The notes under the pieces: model-generated
What the model was told of the DNA's origin: nothing
The model's input: the letters and a program-made list of their open reading frames with translations, nothing else
Databases searched by the model: none
Translations under genes and position numbers: made by a program
Source of the DNA: a virus
Lineage: Duplodnaviria > Caudoviricetes
DNA length: 64,000 nt
Direction: 5' to 3' (one strand)
IMG/VR virus record: IMGVR_UViG_3300014205_000182
Location: 79,725 to 143,724 of that record
Shown: positions 4,096 to 29,281 of the stretch, one piece after another
Layout: each line of letters opens with the position of its first letter
Position numbering within the stretch: position 1 is the first letter of the stretch

Positions 4096-4475
4096 AGGTT
4101 GCTAAACAAGTCATCGTAATGCGCAAGGATCTCAACATGCGCAAGGGTAAGATGGTTGCACAGGGAGCCCACGCTTCTCTGGGCGCTGTTCTGGTGATCC
4201 GTAAGGAGCTAGACGGTGAGCCAGGCCATGCCTGGGGTGAGGCCTTTAGGCAGTGGATGACAGGCACCTTCACCAAAATCTGCGTGTCTGTAAGTTCTGA
4301 GAGCGAGCTTATGGATATCTTCCACGCCGCTAATGACGCTGGTCTGCCGGTCAAGCTAATCACCGACGCCGGGCACACCGAATTCCACGGCGTACCAACA
4401 CGTACGTGTTTGGCTATTGGTCCCGCATGGTCCGACGACATCGACACTGTCACAGGAAAGCTAGCACTACTATGA
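4092..4475 (+). CDS. pth2: peptidyl-tRNA hydrolase type 2
   Basis: KQVIVMRKDLNMRKGKMVAQGAHA, DAGHTEF, TCLAIGP, ID.VTGKL.LL. Confidence 0.95.
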   Translation: MKVAKQVIVMRKDLNMRKGKMVAQGAHASLGAVLVIRKELDGEPGHAWGEAFRQWMTGTFTKICVSVSSESELMDIFHAANDAGLPVKLITDAGHTEFHGVPTRTCLAIGPAWSDDIDTVTGKLALL

Positions 4476-4695
4476 GCGAGCAAATCCTACGTCAAGTCAA
4501 ACTCACGCGACCAATGCATAACGGCCACGCCGAGGAGATTGCCTGGATCGACAACGAGAAAGCCAAGCTCAACAAGTTCGTCGAGGACGAAGATGGGGTC
4601 GTTTGGCTAGTAGCGGAGCTTTACGGCGCTAAGCCGTTCTCAGCTGTCGATCGAACGGCGAGGGTGGCTAGAGAAGTCGCTGACGTCCTCAAAGA

Positions 4696-17845: not shown

Positions 17846-17851
17846 ATCTGA

Positions 17852-17927
17852 GTCACCAAGCATGGTACCTGAGGAGATCTCAGGGCACGACCAAGTTGTT
17901 CTTCGTTCGCATGAAACACTTGGTGAC
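17852..17927 (+). ncRNA. unknown structured RNA (RNA X)
   Basis: 9-bp closing stem GTCACCAAG/CTTGGTGAC enclosing CCTGAG/CTCAGG hairpin; non-coding, at predicted TSS. Confidence 0.55.
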
Positions 17928-17932
17928 GATTA

Positions 17933-18008
17933 GGTGAGGTACGCTAAGTTAAAGCGGCGGGCACTATAAAGCCCGTGTTTGGTGGTTCATGTCCATCCCT
18001 CACCACCA
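17933..18008 (+). tRNA. atypical tRNA/tRNA-like RNA, 8-nt anticodon loop, identity undetermined
   Basis: acceptor GGTGAGG/CCTCACC + A-CCA; D stem CGCT/AGCG; stem CGGGC/GCCCG with loop ACTATAAA; T arm GGTGG-TTCATGT-CCATC; no D-loop GG. Confidence 0.75.
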
Positions 18009-18092
18009 TCCGATAGTGATGCTAGCGGTTACTTCTTTGTCTAAGGACGGGTTCTTCGGGACCCGTAAATACCCGCTGCGATTTTCTTCGGA
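18009..18092 (+). ncRNA. Y-RNA-like scaffold copy 4
   Basis: TCCGA/TCGGA closing stem, TAGTGA, TAGCGG/CCGCTG, TTACTTCT, UUCG hairpin insert; same consensus as 27-kb copies. Confidence 0.7.
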
Positions 18093-18323
18093 CTAATTTA
18101 TGAGCATCCCAAACTACTATAACGACGGGCATACTGCCAGCGCAGAGATGAAGCGCGACCTTGCACGTGTTCGCCTGGCTAAGCCAGAGCGCTACCTAAC
18201 TCGCAAGGTGAAGGAACAGCGGCATTCAACCGAAGGTACGGTCGACGTTGTCGTCAACCGCGAGCCTGATTCGTTGGCGATGGGGCGTCGTGCGCGACAC
18301 GAGTTCTGGACCAGGAGAGCTAA

Positions 18324-22332: not shown

Positions 22333-23826
22333 TTGATGCTACCAGAACGTCTGCAAACCCTACCAACAAACGGCATAGCTTTCGACTTAGAAACGTACCT
22401 GATCCGTCCGGGGAACTTAGTTCCCCCGCTCGTCCTGGGCTCCGTTGCCTGGTACGATGGAGCTAACATTCAGGGCGCCCTGCTCGACAAGGAGCAGGCG
22501 CTTGAGTTATTTGCTCAGGTCATCGACGACACTACGAAGATCATCGAAGGCGCTAACATCGCTTTCGATCTAGCTGTTCTCGTTCGCGAGTTCGCCAAGC
22601 GAGGGATTGACATTATCCCCTACATCGCCATGGCGCTTATGGGCGAGCATCGCGAACACATGACCGGCATCGACGACGGTCGAATCTACGACATTCAACA
22701 CGCCGAGGCTCTGAACGCCATCGGTCTCGGAATGCTCGGCAAGAACCCGCGAACCGGTGAGCCTCTGAAGGGACGCTACTCGCAGGATCAGGTTATCAAG
22801 CTTAACTTTGACAGAGATGATGCCAAGATTAACGACGAATTCCGTTTGCGATACGGCGAGTTCGACGGTGTACCGCTCGATCAACTTCCCGAGAAGGCTC
22901 GCCAGTACCCAGTAGACGACGTCGTCAACTGTAAGCAAGCAGCACTGGCCCAGACTGGTCACATCCCTAAGATCGGCCCGTATCACACCTGGGGACCGAA
23001 GGGTGCGTGTGTCGACTGTGGCGCCACGGGCATGAGTACGCCGTGCTGGATCACGAAGCCTCACCTGAACCTTCACGACCTTGCTAGCCAGACCTCGACG
23101 GCATTCTGGTTGCACATGGGCGCAGCTACAGGCTTCAAGATCGACCAGAAGTACGTCGACATCATCGAGAATTATTCGTCTAAGAACCGCATCGACGGCC
23201 TCAAGCCGTACATTGAAGCGGGTCTGATTCGTCCGAATGGTACCGAGGATCGCAGCGAACTTAAGCGCCGCGTTGCTGTTGCTTTTGGTTCCAAGGATCC
23301 GTGCCCTGTCTGCTCCGGCACTGGCAAAGTACCGAGCCCGGCCAACCCTAAGTCCAAGATCATCTGCTTTCAGATGGCCGAGGACCAGCAGACCAAGCTC
23401 AAGACTTGTGACGGCACTGGTCTGATTCTTCACCCTGATGTGCCGCGTTCTGAGAAGGACGGCATCGGTTACGGGCGTTCGTACCTGATTGATAGTGGTG
23501 ACGAATTCCTCATGGGTTACGCCGAGGTGATGGAAGACGCCAAGGTTCTGAACGTCTACGTTCCGTTCCTTCGTACTGGGCGTTTGTGTGTCTCGTGTGA
23601 CCATCACGGCACGGACAAGGATCCTCACAAAGAGGGTTGTGCGATGGCCGGCTGGAAAGATATCCCACTGACCCTGCGCCCAAACCCTATCCTTGATACA
23701 GGACGTGTCAGCTACGATGGGGCTGTAATGCTCCTGCCACGCCGCCCCGGTTTTATGGGTAAGTTCTTCGAAGAGATTGAAGTGCCAGACGACTACGTCC
23801 TTCAGGAAGGTGAAGAATGGGCGTAG
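22333..23826 (+). CDS. polA: family A DNA polymerase, N-terminal fragment (3'-5' exonuclease/thumb)
   Basis: AFDLET (ExoI), GANIAFD (ExoII), YPVDD (ExoIII), DTGRVS; stops before motif A. Confidence 0.8.
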   Translation: MMLPERLQTLPTNGIAFDLETYLIRPGNLVPPLVLGSVAWYDGANIQGALLDKEQALELFAQVIDDTTKIIEGANIAFDLAVLVREFAKRGIDIIPYIAMALMGEHREHMTGIDDGRIYDIQHAEALNAIGLGMLGKNPRTGEPLKGRYSQDQVIKLNFDRDDAKINDEFRLRYGEFDGVPLDQLPEKARQYPVDDVVNCKQAALAQTGHIPKIGPYHTWGPKGACVDCGATGMSTPCWITKPHLNLHDLASQTSTAFWLHMGAATGFKIDQKYVDIIENYSSKNRIDGLKPYIEAGLIRPNGTEDRSELKRRVAVAFGSKDPCPVCSGTGKVPSPANPKSKIICFQMAEDQQTKLKTCDGTGLILHPDVPRSEKDGIGYGRSYLIDSGDEFLMGYAEVMEDAKVLNVYVPFLRTGRLCVSCDHHGTDKDPHKEGCAMAGWKDIPLTLRPNPILDTGRVSYDGAVMLLPRRPGFMGKFFEEIEVPDDYVLQEGEEWA

Positions 23827-24257
23827 ATCACATCGGAAAAACGGAGAAGGGGTGTACCCGTTGCCTGGAAACTAAACCGATTGATAGTTTTTACCTGGTC
23901 AAACACCAGGCTAACGGAAGATTTTATCGGCAAGCCCAATGTAGGGCCTGTGACGACAGTAGACGCAAACGGGAGAACGATTGTAATCGAGAGCGTAACA
24001 AGTGGCGTGCGATTCTGAAGAAGTACGGGATTACGAAAGATCAGTGGGAGGACAGGTTCTCACAGCAAGGTTCCAGATGTGCAGTATGTCCTGCAATTGA
24101 ACCTGGATGGGAACGCGGTTGGGTGGTGGATCACGATCACAAAACCGGACGTATACGAGGGTTACTGTGTGTTAACTGTAACTTGTTAGTGGGTCACGCC
24201 AAAGACAACCCGTCAACGCTGCGGAATGCAGCGAAATACCTGGAGACAACACAATGA
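23817..24257 (+). CDS. endonuclease VII-family homing endonuclease
   Basis: CTRC, CRAC, KYGIT, CAVC, VDHDH.TG.IRGLLC..CN. Confidence 0.9.
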   Translation: MGVDHIGKTEKGCTRCLETKPIDSFYLVKHQANGRFYRQAQCRACDDSRRKRENDCNRERNKWRAILKKYGITKDQWEDRFSQQGSRCAVCPAIEPGWERGWVVDHDHKTGRIRGLLCVNCNLLVGHAKDNPSTLRNAAKYLETTQ

Positions 24258-25483
24258 AGAAAATCAAGCGATGGAGCGCACAGTACGTTCCCAGCATGCG
24301 CGAATGCTTTCAAGCTCGCGACGGCAAGGGCTATTCGTCCGAGGACTTCAAGGCCGGTGAAACGTTTACGCACGCCCAGAGTTGTATCTGGTTGCTCGGA
24401 TACTCTGACCTTGGTGTCGCTCTCCTGAACGACGTCGATCCTCACGGCGCCGTCGCTGCATCCGTTCTTGGTGTGAGCTACGAAGAATGGTTCAAGCGTC
24501 GTAAGGAACCTCTCTTTAAGGCGGCTCGTCAGGGCGCCAAGCCATTTACGTTTGGAAAGCCCACCGGCATGTCGTCGATCAAGCTTGTCTTGTCTAACCG
24601 CGCCCAGGGCCAGGATACGCCAGCCGAGGGAGGACCGTCGTGGATTGACGACGGAACGTATACCGGCAAGAAGATTCGCGGGTACAAGGGTACGAGATTC
24701 TGCATTCTGATGAACGGCTCACCTACCTGTGGTGACATCAAGGTAACCAGCTGGGGTCGTCGCGACAAGATCCCGCCGACTTGCAAGGCTTGTCTGGAAT
24801 GTGCCGATCACCTCGGCAAGATTTGGCTCAAGCAGTGGCGTGAGAACCAGCCGTACTACGACATCAACGACGGGATCGTCAACGAAGGTATGATGATCAC
24901 TGAGGAAGCTCTGGAGCGTTGGCCGTGGCTCAAGAAGGTCTATCGCCCTGGCACGAAGACCGAACCTGGCCAGGTGATGCAACACTGGTCCGGTCGTTTG
25001 CGTGGTGGTATGGACTTCACGACGACGTGCAACGGGTGGTTCCAAGTCCTTCTGGCCGAGATCACCAAGCTTGCATACCGCCTCGTCGCTCGTGAGTGCT
25101 ACGACTCGACAATCAAGGTGCCAACACAGTTGTTCTACAACTCCAACCGTAGTCGTTACGCTGGTATGCAGAGCCCACTGTTCCGGTCTACACCGGTTGC
25201 ACCATTTCACGACGAGTTGTTTATGGAGCACCCGGCGTCGATGCTGGTTGACGGTGCAATGCGCACCAGTGAAGTAATGCGTGATGTTTTTGCGTATGTT
25301 TGCCCGGACATGGCTGCGAAGGTTGGTGCCGACCCTACCATCATGGAGCGTTGGTACAAGAACGCCGAGCCGGTCTACCGCGACGCGGCGGGTAACAAGT
25401 GCGAGCCCGACGCGCCGGGCGCACGGCTTTCGCTGTGGAAGCCGAAATTCGGACCGGGCGCTGAGGTTGTTGGAGTCCAGTGA
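24254..25483 (+). CDS. polA: family A DNA polymerase, C-terminal fragment (palm/fingers)
   Basis: MRECFQAR..SEDFKAGE (motif A), DPH, RQGAKPFTFG (motif B), FHDEL (motif C). Confidence 0.8.
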   Translation: MKKIKRWSAQYVPSMRECFQARDGKGYSSEDFKAGETFTHAQSCIWLLGYSDLGVALLNDVDPHGAVAASVLGVSYEEWFKRRKEPLFKAARQGAKPFTFGKPTGMSSIKLVLSNRAQGQDTPAEGGPSWIDDGTYTGKKIRGYKGTRFCILMNGSPTCGDIKVTSWGRRDKIPPTCKACLECADHLGKIWLKQWRENQPYYDINDGIVNEGMMITEEALERWPWLKKVYRPGTKTEPGQVMQHWSGRLRGGMDFTTTCNGWFQVLLAEITKLAYRLVARECYDSTIKVPTQLFYNSNRSRYAGMQSPLFRSTPVAPFHDELFMEHPASMLVDGAMRTSEVMRDVFAYVCPDMAAKVGADPTIMERWYKNAEPVYRDAAGNKCEPDAPGARLSLWKPKFGPGAEVVGVQ

Positions 25484-25505
25484 GACCTTCGCTGGTTATC
25501 TGGGC

Positions 25506-26117
25506 ATGACGTACGAGAGACCAGATAGCCGTCCTCTGCCAGAGTTTCAGCCTTGGCCTAAGATCCCGAGACTTAACCGTGAGGTTACCGTTTCGGAGAA
25601 GATCGATGGAACAAACGCTGCGGTCTGGATTTCTGATGACGGTACTCAAATCGGTGCCCAGTCTCGGACGAAGTGGATCACTCCCAAGGATGATAACTAC
25701 GGTTTCGCTCGTTGGGTAGAGGAAAACCGCGACGAGCTTCTAAAGCTCGGACCTGGACATCACTTCGGTGAATGGTGGGGCTCTGGTATCAACCGCCGCT
25801 ACGGTCTAACCGAGCGTAGGTTCTGGTTGTTCAACACGCATCGTTGGGGTAATCCGGATACACGTCCTGCGTGTGTGGGCTGCGTTCCAGTTCTTTGGAA
25901 CGGTAACTACCAGGACATGGATCTTGCTGCAATCATGGCCAAGCTCACGAGTGAGGGTAGCGTGTCTGCGCCCGGGTTTATGAAGCCTGAGGGAGTTGTA
26001 ATCTTCCATCACGCCGCAGATCAGTACTTCAAGGTGCTTGCGGAGGGTGACGAGTTACCTAAGGGGATTACTACGTTGAAGGAACGCGCAACGCTTGCAA
26101 AGCTGGAGGGAAAATGA
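25506..26117 (+). CDS. ATP-dependent RNA ligase (Rnl2-like)
   Basis: SEKIDGTNA, QSR, FGEWWG, FWLFN, EGVV, K; start at MTYE. Confidence 0.85.
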   Translation: MTYERPDSRPLPEFQPWPKIPRLNREVTVSEKIDGTNAAVWISDDGTQIGAQSRTKWITPKDDNYGFARWVEENRDELLKLGPGHHFGEWWGSGINRRYGLTERRFWLFNTHRWGNPDTRPACVGCVPVLWNGNYQDMDLAAIMAKLTSEGSVSAPGFMKPEGVVIFHHAADQYFKVLAEGDELPKGITTLKERATLAKLEGK

Positions 26118-26380
26118 GCGATCGAAAGTTCAAGATTGGTGACGTCGTTGTTCTGCGCTCGGGCGGGCCGCAGATGACCGTACTTCAATACGAAGTCGAC
26201 AAATTTAACTACGTTGAGGACGACGAGGAGCCCGGTGTGGAGTGTTGTTGGTTTGCCGAGACAGGCAACGGGTACACACCAGACGACATCCACAGTGATG
26301 AATTTGCTGAAGAGATTCTGACACTGCTTTACACCGCTGAAGCTTTTGACAACGCCAATAAACACAAGAGGGACCAGTGA
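26114..26380 (+). CDS. YodC/DUF2158-like protein
   Basis: FKIGDVVVLRSGGPQMTV..C.WF. Confidence 0.75.
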   Translation: MSDRKFKIGDVVVLRSGGPQMTVLQYEVDKFNYVEDDEEPGVECCWFAETGNGYTPDDIHSDEFAEEILTLLYTAEAFDNANKHKRDQ

Positions 26381-26778
26381 GCCTCTGGACACGTGGTATC
26401 ACATCTCTCGGCTGGATCGGAATCGATCTTGACGGAACTCTAGCCACTTACGGCACTCGCCAGTGGCCAGACATCGGCGAACCTGTCCCAGCTATCCTAG
26501 CAATCGTGAAGGATTACCTAGCTCAAGGGCGCGAAGTTCGCATCATGACGGCACGCGTCGGTAACCTCTTCAAGAACCACGTAACTCGTGCAGAGTACGA
26601 CGACGGAGTTGAGCAGGAGCGTTTAGTTCAGGCTTGGTGCATGAAGCATCTCGGCAGAGAACTACCTGTAACTGCCGTGAAGGACTATGATATGGACCTT
26701 CTTCTGGACGACCGTGCAGTGACTATCGAGAAAAACACTGGTGTGATCTTGACAAAGGATTGGAGCGTGACTAAATGA
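26377..26778 (+). CDS. HAD-family phosphatase (PNKP-phosphatase-like)
   Basis: IDLDGTLA, TAR, K, DDRA. Confidence 0.8.
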   Translation: MSLWTRGITSLGWIGIDLDGTLATYGTRQWPDIGEPVPAILAIVKDYLAQGREVRIMTARVGNLFKNHVTRAEYDDGVEQERLVQAWCMKHLGRELPVTAVKDYDMDLLLDDRAVTIEKNTGVILTKDWSVTK

Positions 26779-27017
26779 GTGATATGAACAATTCACAGAA
26801 GGCGGTACAGGCTCTGGTTATTCAGCTGCACGAAGCCGGTGAGCCGATTGAAGACATTACCGACGCGTTCTCGTTTGCTGGTGCCATTGCAGCGGCAAGC
26901 CTCAAGCTGCCGCGACGCAACGTCGAAGGCCTTGTCGGTATTCTTGCATCGGTGATGAACAACGAGATCCCTTCGCATTATCCGTCCCTTGACGATAAGC
27001 CCTTGACAGAGAACTAG
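26775..27017 (+). CDS. hypothetical protein
   Basis: coupled ORF. Confidence 0.5.
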   Translation: MSDMNNSQKAVQALVIQLHEAGEPIEDITDAFSFAGAIAAASLKLPRRNVEGLVGILASVMNNEIPSHYPSLDDKPLTEN

Positions 27018-27031
27018 TTCGTAGTTAGATT
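27003..27031 (+). promoter_or_regulatory. sigma70-type promoter for ncRNA array and Ro60
   Basis: TTGACA-N17-TAGATT; predicted TSS near 27037, first base of scaffold 1. Confidence 0.75.
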
Positions 27032-27036
27032 GTTTT

Positions 27037-27101
27037 TGAGACAGTGAAGCTGACGGATACTTCATCCATTAAAGAAACCCCGTCAACGTTATATCTTCTC
27101 A
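27037..27101 (+). ncRNA. Y-RNA-like scaffold copy 1
   Basis: TGAGA/TCTCA, CAGTGA, TGACGG/CCGTCA, ATACTTCAT, TATCT. Confidence 0.7.
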
Positions 27102-27105
27102 TTTT

Positions 27106-27179
27106 GCCCCTGTAGCTTAATTCTAGAGCACCGGTCATTAGGACCGGGGATCGTGGTGAAAATCCATGCAGGGGCGCCA
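27106..27179 (+). tRNA. atypical tRNA, nominal anticodon UUA
   Basis: acceptor GCCCCTG/CAGGGGC + G-CCA; D stem GCTT/GAGC; CCGGT-CATTAGG-ACCGG; T arm CGTGG-TGAAAAT-CCATG; A33, no D-loop GG. Confidence 0.75.
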
Positions 27180-27180
27180 A

Positions 27181-27241
27181 GCGGTAGTGATAGACTCGGA
27201 TACTTCATGGGGAAATAAACCCGAGTCAACAATATCTCCGC
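27181..27241 (+). ncRNA. Y-RNA-like scaffold copy 2
   Basis: GCGG/CCGC, TAGTGA, GACTCGG/CCGAGTC, ATACTTCAT, TATCT. Confidence 0.7.
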
Positions 27242-27251
27242 GTTAATTTAT

Positions 27252-27337
27252 GCACCTTATAGCTAGCAGCGGCGTGAATCACCAGCAGTACTGGTCGCGA
27301 AAGCGTAGTCACGACAAAATGAAGGTAGGGTGCGCCA
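27252..27337 (+). ncRNA. CCA-ended pseudo-tRNA with non-cloverleaf core
   Basis: acceptor-like stem GCACCTTA/TAGGGTGC + G-CCA; core CGTGA/TCACG enclosing ACCAG/CTGGT and CGC-GAAA-GCG hairpins. Confidence 0.6.
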
Positions 27338-27340
27338 ATT

Positions 27341-27470
27341 TGCCGATAGTGATGAGAGCGGTTACTTCATTGATAACGAACGAGGTCCGGGCTGCAAACC
27401 CCGGCGCACCTGCAAAGGTGTGTAGCTTAATAGTAGAGCGCGAAAACACCGCAATCGATTATCTTCGGCA
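27341..27470 (+). ncRNA. YrlA-like Y RNA (scaffold copy 3) with circularly permuted tRNA module
   Basis: TGCCGA/TCGGCA; TAGTGA; GCGGT/ACCGC; order is T arm CCGGG/CCCGG, 7-bp acceptor CGCACCT/AGGTGTG closed by GCAA, TA, D arm GCTT-AATAGTA-GAGC; next to Ro60. Confidence 0.8.
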
Positions 27471-27478
27471 CTTTTCAA

Positions 27479-27524
27479 GTGCGCCCCTGGACTGAGGGTC
27501 GGGGGACGGGGTCCAGGGGCGCAC
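27479..27524 (+). promoter_or_regulatory. 14-bp GC hairpin with G-rich loop before Ro60 (attenuator/terminator-like)
   Basis: GTGCGCCCCTGGAC/GTCCAGGGGCGCAC followed by ATCCTTTT. Confidence 0.55.
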
Positions 27525-27640
27525 ATCCTTTTATGTCCAGCAAGCATTACAACCCTGAAAAACGTGTATGGCGAGGCCGCTCCTACAAGAACGGCAAGCG
27601 TGTTTCTGAACTCAAGTACTCCAACAAAGGTAGTGACACA

Positions 27641-29281
27641 ATGGCAAACATTCTGAATCCAAAGTCTCCGAAGAAGATCGACCAAGTCGAAACCCACAAG
27701 AACTGGATGGGTGGAACTTCGTTCGACATCAACGATCCAATCATGCGGCTGCGCATCGCAGCTAGCTCGTGCTTCTTTGGCGAGCCACAGTACTACTCGA
27801 CGGACCCTGACGACAAGCGCAAGGCGCGTCAGGCATCTATGCCTGCTAACTTCGGGAAGCCGACGACACTGCCGGCAGCGCAGCTTACCAAGCTTCGTCA
27901 GACGCTGACGGCCATCGATCCTCAGGAGTGGCGGTCGATGACGCCGGCTCAGGCGATGGTCTCTGCTATCGACGCAGCCCTAGACCACGACCCTGAGGCA
28001 ACGCTCGGCATTGCAGCAGCGCTTCGCCAGGCTGATCACATCCGTACGACGCCCCAGGTTATCCTGGTTCGTGCAGCACACCACCCCAAGGTTCGTGGTA
28101 CTGGCATGCTCAAGAAGTATGCTCAGGAGATCATGGCACGTGCAGACGAGCCGGCCGTCGGTCTCGCATACCACATCTTTGCCTACGGCAAGGAGAAGCC
28201 AATCCCGAACGCCCTGAAGAAGGTGTGGGCACAGCGCCTCGCACGTGCTTCGGAGTACGACCTCGCCAAGTATCGCCTGGCTGACCACTCGGTCAAGACG
28301 GTCGACGTCGTCAACCTCGTTCACGCCAAGTCTCCAGCAATCGGAAAGCTCATGAAGGGTGAACTTACGACCGAGGGCGAGACGTGGGAGTCCATCATCT
28401 CGCAAGGCGGATCTACCAAGGAAAACTGGGAGAAGGCCATCGACAAGATGGGCCACATGGCCCTACTGCGAAACCTGCGTAACTTCAACGACAAGGGTGT
28501 TAACCCGTCGCTGTACACTGGCAAGCTCGTTGGTGGCGCAGCGACCGGTAAGCAGCTTCCGTTCCGCTATTACTCGGCGTACAAGGCTGTCGCCGGTTCT
28601 TCGGCACCGGTGATGGACGCTATCGAGCAGTGTCTGGAGATTTCGCTGGGTAACCTGCCGAAGTTCCCGGGCCGTACGATGGCGCTTGCCGACAACTCGG
28701 GCTCGGCTCGTGGTGCAACCACGTCCACGATGGGAACGATGCAGGTTTCGACGATTGCTAACTTGACGGCTATCGTGGCCGGCAAGGTGTCGGACGACGG
28801 CTACATCGGTGTCTTCGGTGACACGTTGAACGTCGTGCCGGTGCGCAAGAGGTCGTCGGTGTTCGATCAGTTGAAGGCTGCCGACGAAGCTGGTGCAGCA
28901 GTCGGCGGTTCTACCGAGAACGGTATCTGGCTGTTCTGGGAGAAGGCTATCCGCGAGAAGGAGCATTGGGACAACGTGTTCGTGATGTCTGATATGCAGG
29001 CAGGTCACGGCGGGCTCTATGGTACGCGTGCGTCGATGGCGTCGTACTCTCGTGAGTACGGTTGGCCGGCAGCTAACTCGCCGCACATCGACGTCGCCAA
29101 GCTCGTCAACACGTATCGCGCCAAGGTCAACCCGAAGGTCAACGTGTTTCTAATCCAGGTCGCCGGTTACCAGGACACCCTGATGCCGGAGTTCTACAAC
29201 CGTACGTATATCCTCGGCGGATGGGGTGAAGGCGTTCTTCGCTTTGCTGCCGCGATGGCTAATATCGGAGAGGTTAAGTGA
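27641..29281 (+). CDS. rsr: Ro60/TROVE domain RNA-binding protein
   Basis: N..GG.SF, FGEPQYY, RADEP, EYDLAKY, DVVNLVHAK, TWE, MALLRNLRN, QLPFRYYSAY, vWA DNSGS/SDMQ, GWGE; upstream in-frame ATG at 27533 also possible. Confidence 0.93.
   Translation: MANILNPKSPKKIDQVETHKNWMGGTSFDINDPIMRLRIAASSCFFGEPQYYSTDPDDKRKARQASMPANFGKPTTLPAAQLTKLRQTLTAIDPQEWRSMTPAQAMVSAIDAALDHDPEATLGIAAALRQADHIRTTPQVILVRAAHHPKVRGTGMLKKYAQEIMARADEPAVGLAYHIFAYGKEKPIPNALKKVWAQRLARASEYDLAKYRLADHSVKTVDVVNLVHAKSPAIGKLMKGELTTEGETWESIISQGGSTKENWEKAIDKMGHMALLRNLRNFNDKGVNPSLYTGKLVGGAATGKQLPFRYYSAYKAVAGSSAPVMDAIEQCLEISLGNLPKFPGRTMALADNSGSARGATTSTMGTMQVSTIANLTAIVAGKVSDDGYIGVFGDTLNVVPVRKRSSVFDQLKAADEAGAAVGGSTENGIWLFWEKAIREKEHWDNVFVMSDMQAGHGGLYGTRASMASYSREYGWPAANSPHIDVAKLVNTYRAKVNPKVNVFLIQVAGYQDTLMPEFYNRTYILGGWGEGVLRFAAAMANIGEVK

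Follow-up and report, generated by a model that had tools for sequence, protein, structure and literature searches.

A probable Ro60 ribonucleoprotein system with five paralogous Y RNAs in an uncultured phage

Y RNAs are classically viewed as modular molecules in which a constant Ro-binding stem is joined to a variable effector module. To our knowledge, Ro60-Y particles are well studied in animals and a few bacteria, while their role in phages has been barely explored, with one structural paper devoted to it. For the bacterial YrlA RNAs, the motif GNCGAAN0-1G was defined and tied to contact with the Ro60 protein Rsr by Chen et al. 2014, and YrlA-like RNAs have been reported in 22 phages (PMC4201824). 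In Mycobacterium smegmatis, a single precursor is cut to give YrlA and YrlB, and a 7-bp acceptor-like hairpin makes YrlA a substrate of RNase P (PMC4201824). The Ro60 protein of Thermus phage phiLo binds two Y-like RNAs encoded upstream of its gene and forms complexes with the host polynucleotide phosphorylase (PNPase) (Nucleic Acids Research 2025, PMC12135203), and Ro60/TROVE genes are linked, in bacteria and jumbo phages, with sets of RNA-repair genes (PMC7790460, PMC7824862). Here we describe a related locus in an uncultured phage, within a 64,000-nt stretch (the window) that makes up the last 64 kb of the 143,724-bp IMG/VR virus record IMGVR_UViG_3300014205_000182 (GC 54.5%).

The window encodes a Ro60 protein, and the 623 nt that precede its ATG, counted from the stop codon (27017) of an 80-codon open reading frame (ORF), hold no credible coding frame. 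They are filled instead by a promoter-like site, a scaffold (S1), a tRNA-like element (T1), a second scaffold (S2), a second CCA-ended element (T2), a third scaffold (S3) and a hairpin, in that order (Table 1). A first-pass annotation, made from the letters alone, had listed these elements, and all are present where it placed them. It had also seen in them a multi-member Y RNA family, beside a phage Ro60 gene, in which the handle is constant and the interiors vary. The sequence family, its synteny with TROVE, the covariation of its stems and the YrlA architecture of S3 bear this out, and we think it probable that the locus is a phage Ro60 ribonucleoprotein (RNP) system with five paralogous Y RNAs, those of the array beside the gene being released from one precursor.

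Table 1. Features of the Ro60 locus and of the dispersed copies; positions are those of the window unless marked as genome positions.
Feature	Position	Strand	Support
Promoter candidate, sigma-70-like, TTGACA-17-TAGATT	27003–27031	+	10/12 consensus positions
S1, short Y-RNA-like scaffold	27037–27101	+	fold z −2.4; R1 67.3 bits (training sequence); motif count
T1, cloverleaf tRNA-like, anticodon UUA, encoded GCCA	27106–27179	+	ARAGORN; Rfam tRNA 47.5 bits; fold z −3.9
S2, short Y-RNA-like scaffold, stems GCGG/CCGC and GACUCGG/CCGAGUC	27181–27241	+	R1 31.9 bits, E 3.9e-6, outside training set
T2, CCA-ended, 7–9 bp terminal helix, Y-shaped interior, no cloverleaf	27252–27337	+	fold z −1.0 to −1.25; weak support
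S3, YrlA-type Y RNA, handle and permuted tRNA-like module	27341–27470	+	R1 28.8 bits, E 3.9e-5; fold z −3.6; partial Rfam YrlA match
GC-rich 15-bp hairpin, then CCUUUU tail	27479–27524	+	−38.6 kcal/mol, z −5.4
Ro60, TROVE and vWA with DxSxS MIDAS, 546 aa	27641–29281	+	Pfam, phrog and PDB matches
T3, cloverleaf tRNA-like, 8-nt anticodon loop, encoded ACCA	17933–18008	+	abuts S4, no spacer; cloverleaf is 74% of ensemble; z −3.9
S4, fourth scaffold, 9 kb upstream of array	18009–18096	+	R1 26.2 bits, E 2.7e-4; z −2.6
T5, CCA-less tRNA-like, directly before S5	genome 13010–13082	−	normal 7-nt loop, anticodon CUC
S5, fifth scaffold, within tRNA array, outside window	genome 12933–13009	−	motif scan
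T4, tRNA-like with GCCA, about 4 nt downstream of S5	genome 12857–12928	−	broken anticodon stem
RNA ligase, likely true start near 25506	25281–26117	+	Pfam RNA_ligase 3e-12; phrog_548 5e-26; KIDG
Small HAD-type phosphatase, DLDGT	26377–26778	+	HAD_PNKP E 0.0055, under curated cut-off; phrog_415 1.6e-4

The scaffolds share a handle, composed of a covarying closing stem, an internal loop YAGUGAW facing UUCU, a second stem ending ACGG/CCGU, and a UACUUC...AAA junction. In S1 these parts read as a closing stem UGAGA/UCUCA, CAGUGA, a second stem UGACGG/CCGUCA, AUACUUC, a short loop and UCU. Each of S1–S3 folds as the first-pass annotation described, the six stem pairs it wrote out are all complementary, and the motif AGTGA-N-CGG-WTACTTCAT occurs three times in the window as against no occurrence in 100 shuffles. 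That annotation had counted four scaffolds, and the fourth, S4, came to light when the genome of the phage was searched.

When aligned with MAFFT, sets of 16 or 8 units were out of register on the 3' side and RNAalifold drew no structure from them, and for this reason a covariance model, R1, was built from five well-registered short units (S1, S5 and three foreign ones), with two helices, 15 pairs and a structure set by hand. A search of 916 kb with R1 gave 28 matches, among them all four window scaffolds and S5; S2, S3 and S4, none of which had been used in training, were recovered at E-values between 3.9e-6 and 2.7e-4. On the whole genome of the phage, R1 found the five copies and nothing else credible, a match at genome 121518–121619 (13 bits, E 0.7) being taken as noise. 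In the R1-fitted alignment of homologues, 89.0% of cells are paired, as opposed to 57.7% when shuffled and 36–49% (about 40%) when the partners are slid, and both sides have changed in 140 cells where 48 would be expected. Compensatory changes are seen at 13 of the 15 pairs, with four to six pair types at each position of the closing stem, and the 3' UUCU, which formed no part of the search pattern, is kept in 22–26 of the 28 members. S1–S5 are, then, one RNA family with a shared two-helix structure. A blastn comparison of the window's RNA region with the INPHARED phages returned no match. A reading of GUGAUGA in S3 and S4 as a k-turn (box C/D-like), prompted by a weak snoRNA match, was rejected because the opposite strand carries no GA.

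The same handle accompanies Ro60 genes in other phages. Scanning IMG/VR with AGTGA-N(5-12)-CGGWTACTTC yielded 120 loci, mostly chance occurrences, of which ten encode a TROVE protein (24–61% identical to the window Ro60); in each of these, one to four copies of the motif lie upstream of TROVE on the strand of that gene. R1 matched 12 of the 96 foreign loci searched, nine with TROVE inside the locus and three (L017, L070 and L105) that are cut loci, while the other 84, chance carriers of the 5' pattern, gave no R1 match. At E <= 0.005, ten of the 11 foreign viral-contig records with an R1 match carry TROVE, the eleventh being a fragment estimated at 26% complete. Here, too, cultured phages can be cited: R1 matches adjoin Ro60, on its strand, in Bacillus phage G (three), Caulobacter phage CcrColossus (two), Gordonia phage Rabbitrun, Streptomyces phage BRock and Arthrobacter phage Atuin (two), and none of these RNAs is annotated in its record. 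Altogether the scaffold stands beside TROVE genes in at least 15 other phages. Tandem arrays of Y units are the rule, as in G003, where five Y-like units (two short, three with T arms) lie between a tRNA array and Ro60 and are followed by a terminator hairpin, and in L065, with four Y units back to back. Copies distant from Ro60 and inside tRNA regions are found in G002 and in the 395-kb G005 as well.

Some of these RNAs have been taken for tRNAs. In CcrColossus (L127), a tRNA-Gln annotated in GenBank at 1613–1680 overlaps a YrlA-type match at 1648–1744 (Rfam YrlA, 30.5 bits), and a YrlA-type unit at 1693–1762 of L130 is called tRNA-His by ARAGORN; in both, the tRNA-like module of a Y RNA is mis-annotated as a tRNA. 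Separately, the tRNA region downstream of Ro60 in BRock (L128) contains, at 4348–4511, a match to the manA RNA at 49.7 bits, just under its gathering score of 55.2.

The protein itself is a genuine Ro60, as the first-pass annotation had it. Its TROVE domain (PF05731) scores 49.5 bits in Pfam (E 4.9e-13; curated cut-off 23), it matches phrog_850 at 3e-37, and the only solved structures that it matches are those of the phiLo Ro60 (PDB 9KOP and 9L5Y, 1e-14). When it is aligned with eight phage homologues, residues D351, S353 and S355 of the MIDAS motif (an adhesion site dependent on metal ions) are invariant. In-frame starts at 27533 and 27479 were set aside in favor of 27641, since the N terminus then aligns with that of the closest homologue, L048, and since 27533, which has no ribosome-binding site, falls at the base of the hairpin. 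Viral contigs searched with the protein yielded no close relative. The two nearest that were found are G001 (the same as L048; 61% identity in full-length alignment, 59% by tblastn) and a metagenome locus, L144 (58%). The leader of the gene (27613–27643) carries AAGUACUCC and GUAGUGAC just 5' of the start codon, which resemble two handle motifs in reversed order. These words are not kept in the leaders of G001, G003 or L144; a role as an autoregulatory site was rejected, and the likeness is probably due to chance.

How does the locus compare with the described systems? The YrlA-YrlB RNAs that accompany Rsr in Salmonella, M. smegmatis, mycobacteriophages, CcrColossus and phage G likewise lie next to Ro60, mostly on its strand, and likewise feature a closing stem, an internal loop, a second stem and a YUAY junction; several Y RNAs per locus come from one precursor (an arrangement that we propose here also), with a link to RNase P and CCA ends. 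S1–S3, at 170–600 nt upstream of Ro60, fall within the approximately 4-kb, same-strand distance used to recognize YrlA. The full-length, sub-threshold YrlA match in CcrColossus (42.3 bits) displays the Rfam plan: closing stem, 5-nt loop, second stem, CUAc, T arm, acceptor-like hairpin and D arm. S3 follows this permuted order: UUAC is succeeded by a T-like arm, then by a 7-bp acceptor-like hairpin (GCAA loop) and a D arm. It is the only copy with a tRNA-like body; S1, S2, S4 and S5 are short forms in the manner of YrlB.

The differences are equally clear. The elbow nucleotides of YrlA (UUCGA in the T loop, GG in the D loop) are missing from S3, in which the T loop reads CUGCAAAC and the D loop AAUAGUA. 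Whereas the published motif is GNCGAAN0-1G, the window loop is YAGUGAW; S3 and S4 also hold GCCGAUAG and UCCGAUAG, each with mismatches to that motif. In several of the cultured-phage R1 matches, on the other hand, GCGAA- or GCG-type loops replace GUGA, the actinophage members carrying GCGAA, and it is these matches that tie the R1 family to the published Y RNAs and mark the AGUGA of the window as a C-to-U variant within one family. The first-pass annotation had called the family divergent and, consistent with this, no copy fully matches the Rfam YrlA model (RF02553): none reaches the gathering score of 69, S3 scoring 14.9 bits over model positions 30–81 only. Taking the window units together with 20 related loci, the best YrlA score is 46.5 bits, and the units of related phages score 30–46 bits. 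The window phage differs further in its five copies, two of them far from Ro60, and in the separate, CCA-ended defective tRNAs interleaved with its Y RNAs.

The phiLo system resembles the present one in that a phage Ro60 is served by multiple Y-like RNAs upstream of its gene. The phiLo RNAs (Yrl1 and Yrl2) number only two, however, were chosen by a CGAA motif, and are described with no tRNA-like spacers; binding and PNPase recruitment were demonstrated there, whereas the window system is known from its sequence. The metazoan Y RNAs (human Y1, Y3, Y4 and Y5) offer a looser parallel as paralogues with one Ro60-binding stem and differing, partner-recruiting loops. Unlike the window RNAs, they are separate pol III genes rather than parts of a processed polycistron, carry no tRNA-like modules, and share no sequence similarity with them. 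Phage Ro60 with Y-like RNAs, its binding of them (in phiLo) and the modularity of constant stem and variable loop were thus already known, so that the first-pass interpretation stands as regards a Y-RNA-type family beside Ro60 and not as a new concept. Particular to the window phage are the GUGA loop variant that Rfam fails to detect, the five copies with two dispersed, and the defective tRNA-like elements, mostly CCA-ended, beside every copy.

Those elements deserve closer attention, for all five scaffolds abut a tRNA-like fold, with gaps of 0–10 nt. T1, which the first-pass annotation rightly described as tRNA-like, is called a tRNA (UUA) by ARAGORN, adopts a cloverleaf as its minimum-energy fold, and exceeds the RF00005 gathering score (29 bits) in a small search; an Rfam run at gathering scores over the whole window gave no matches and missed even T1. 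It has A33 in place of the near-universal U33, G37/G38, a T loop UGAAAAU and a D loop AAUUCUA, and so is without U33, the R37 context, G18G19 and T54-Psi55-C56 that mark decoding-competent tRNAs. T3 is called by ARAGORN only at a relaxed threshold, and over its 3' half it shares 85% identity with an odd tRNA of the array, at genome c8348–8421. The same annotation had proposed a second, CCA-ended pseudo-tRNA (T2). Its terminal helix and GCCA hold up; a cloverleaf does not, nor is there a T arm, an Rfam match, a homologue among the sequences searched, or a fold better than that of shuffled sequences, and attempts by hand to see in it a tRNA-Sec-like RNA, a class II tRNA or a tmRNA acceptor domain failed for want of the T arm.

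Across T1–T5, the 7-bp acceptor stem and G+1 are kept, as is U-1 in four of the five. A CCA is encoded in all of T1–T4, as opposed to six of the phage's 30 canonical tRNAs (hypergeometric p = 0.0045). The elbow, on the other hand, has decayed: the UUCRA T loop is missing from T1, T4, T5 and the S3 module, and the D-loop GG from T1, T3 and the S3 module (T2 lacks such arms), whereas among the 30 accepted tRNAs of the phage 20 have the former and 29 the latter. Because what RNase P needs has been kept (acceptor helix, G+1, mostly U-1, and NCCA) while decoding and elbow features have been lost, the tRNA-like elements most likely serve as processing punctuation, that is, as putative RNase P signals that would set the ends of the Y RNAs within their precursor. 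As in mitochondrial transcripts, the MALAT1 mascRNA and bacterial tRNA operons, tRNA or tRNA-like folds here sit beside other RNAs whose ends RNase P and 3' processing would set; unlike in those systems, the case rests on spacing and acceptor features, the elbows are degenerate, and the CCA is encoded. As a side observation, odd anticodon loops recur in the tRNA set of this phage: 8-nt loops are found in two members that ARAGORN labels tgaa and caaa and in T3, and one other tRNA has a 6-nt loop (genome 4469–4544, c8348–8421 and c12326–12399; window 17933–18008).

From these features we infer the following course of events. A promoter near 27003 would drive a single precursor, S1-T1-S2-T2-S3. 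The candidate site, listed as a promoter in the first-pass annotation, lies about 5 nt before S1 and is a match to consensus; in G001 and G003, too, a TTGAC-type site precedes the first Y RNA at this position. The hairpin that follows S3, also listed in that annotation, has a counterpart at the same place in G003, and its position suggests a terminator or 3' stabilizer between the RNA array and Ro60. It would end or attenuate the precursor, with read-through giving the Ro60 mRNA, so that Y RNAs would outnumber that mRNA. RNase P would cut at the 5' ends of T1 and T2, freeing the 3' ends of S1 and S2, and the encoded CCA ends would mark the starts of S2, S3 and S4. Ro60 would then dock on the handle common to the S units, the interiors of which differ, and these variable interiors, including the tRNA-like module of S3, may engage different partners. 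By analogy with Deinococcus, Salmonella and phiLo, such Ro60-Y RNPs could, in infected cells, tether host exoribonucleases such as PNPase, or else other partners, to structured RNAs (PMC4201824, PMC12135203).

A number of points weigh against this picture. No S unit reaches the Rfam YrlA gathering score, and GNCGAAN0-1G is not present as such in any of them, the loop being YAGUGAWG. S4, at about 9.5 kb from Ro60, and S5, at about 94 kb on the other strand, both lie outside the 4-kb, same-strand range. The alignment used for covariation was fitted by R1 itself, which favors pairing, and the statistics of the 5' motif are biased by the pattern with which the sequences were found. Shuffled sequence yields promoter-like matches at least as often as the region does, and the consensus match at 27003 is thus no better than chance frequency. 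Among the tRNA-like elements, T2 has neither T arm nor significant fold, and the degenerate elbows could weaken recognition by RNase P. Finally, the two nearest Ro60 relatives, G001 and L144, have short Y units and no interleaved tRNA-like elements. It follows that the interleaving is specific to the lineage of the window phage and that punctuation is not required for the system; with T2 unconvincing as a tRNA-like fold and the mimics missing from these relatives, the part of the first-pass interpretation that concerned alternating mimics is much reduced.

Should the tRNA-like elements not act as punctuation, they might instead stay joined to the scaffold that follows (T1-S2, T2-S3 and T3-S4), giving Y RNAs whose 5' domain is tRNA-like, a counterpart of YrlA without the permutation, and placing a tRNA mimic in every Ro60 particle. 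We regard this as unlikely, though it has its attractions. The linkers from the CCA end to the next closing stem measure merely 0–3 nt and offer no obvious nuclease site, and an encoded CCA inhibits cleavage of the RNase Z type. The D arm of T1 equals that of the S3 tRNA-like module at 16 of 18 positions, and GCACCU is common to the 5' strand of the T2 acceptor and that of the S3 acceptor-like hairpin. Such fusion would, however, leave S1 with no upstream tRNA-like element and S5 with the CCA-less T5. In other phages, moreover, ordinary and presumably functional tRNAs occupy the equivalent positions, at 0–6 nt from R1 units (L088, L017, L141, L134 and two in Atuin), and these need to be released to work; the Y RNAs of M. 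smegmatis are, for their part, processed from a precursor (PMC4201824).

A second possibility, raised in the first-pass annotation and in our judgment a distinctly slim one, is that the tRNA-like elements are decoys or resistant substitutes directed against host defenses that cleave tRNAs, forming with the RNA ligase, the HAD phosphatase and the Ro60-Y RNPs a module of counter-defense and repair. The two genes, to which the first-pass annotation had drawn attention, lie 0.25–1.5 kb upstream on the same strand. The ligase is as claimed, with its Pfam match and a KxDG motif (KIDG); for the phosphatase, the DxDGT motif stands, whereas the family match is weak, and the product may be a HAD-type protein weakly similar to the PNKP phosphatase domain. 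The phage carries about 30 tRNAs, T1, T3 and T4 have abnormal, A/U-rich anticodon loops, and Ro60/TROVE is tied, in bacteria and jumbo phages, to sets of RNA-repair genes (PMC7790460, PMC7824862). Yet the surroundings of the locus yielded no kinase domain, RtcB or other repair partner, the nearest relatives do not keep the tRNA-like elements, and the anticodon loops of these elements differ among themselves and fit no known nuclease target that could be compared; gene proximity is the sole evidence. It would be similarly surprising to us if the defective, CCA-ended look-alikes proved to be functional partners of the Ro60-Y particles, whether fused to the next Y RNA or loaded in trans.

Least of all do we expect T1 to be a working ochre-suppressor tRNA and its neighbors ordinary divergent phage tRNAs, alternating with Y RNAs only since Y RNA genes live in tRNA operons: its 47.5 bits do fall within the 39–62 bits of the phage's accepted tRNAs, T5 has a normal loop with anticodon CUC, and many phages have Ro60 genes within tRNA arrays, but the aberrant features of T1 listed above, together with stop-codon usage free of any sign of TAA read-through (TAA in 65 of 264 long frames, and TAA-joined frames not in excess), make such a suppressor unlikely, as do, for the neighbors, the 8-nt loop of T3, the broken anticodon stem of T4 and the missing cloverleaf of T2. 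Recoding of TAA by T1 was rejected on the same stop-codon usage.

Two further features of the window may be recorded. Between a promoter-like TTGACA...TACTGT (17816) and T3 lies a structured RNA candidate (17848–17932), with a 9-bp closing stem GUCACCAAG/CUUGGUGAC and an inner hairpin (z −1.9), which matches neither Rfam nor R1. At 22333–25483, DNA polymerase fragments flank an endonuclease VII/HNH-type ORF (23817–24257; Pfam Endonuclease_7, 3.6e-23).

The locus does not open a new kind of system. It does show that phage Ro60 genes are usually accompanied by arrays of short Y RNAs. Since the current Rfam model misses these RNAs, the records of cultured phages, too (phage G, CcrColossus and several actinophages), lack annotation of them. 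The Ro60-docking loop, putative in the window phage, would tolerate GUGA as a variant of GCGAA, the published motif. Y RNA genes are interwoven with tRNA operons and, in the window phage, stand beside crippled tRNAs seemingly kept for their acceptor end only. Were the look-alikes partners of Ro60 after all, tRNA mimics displayed on the protein could intercept or repair the damage that host tRNA-targeting defenses inflict, together with the adjacent RNA ligase and phosphatase. A covariance model of the handle would permit systematic annotation of these arrays, and it gives clear mutational targets for binding.

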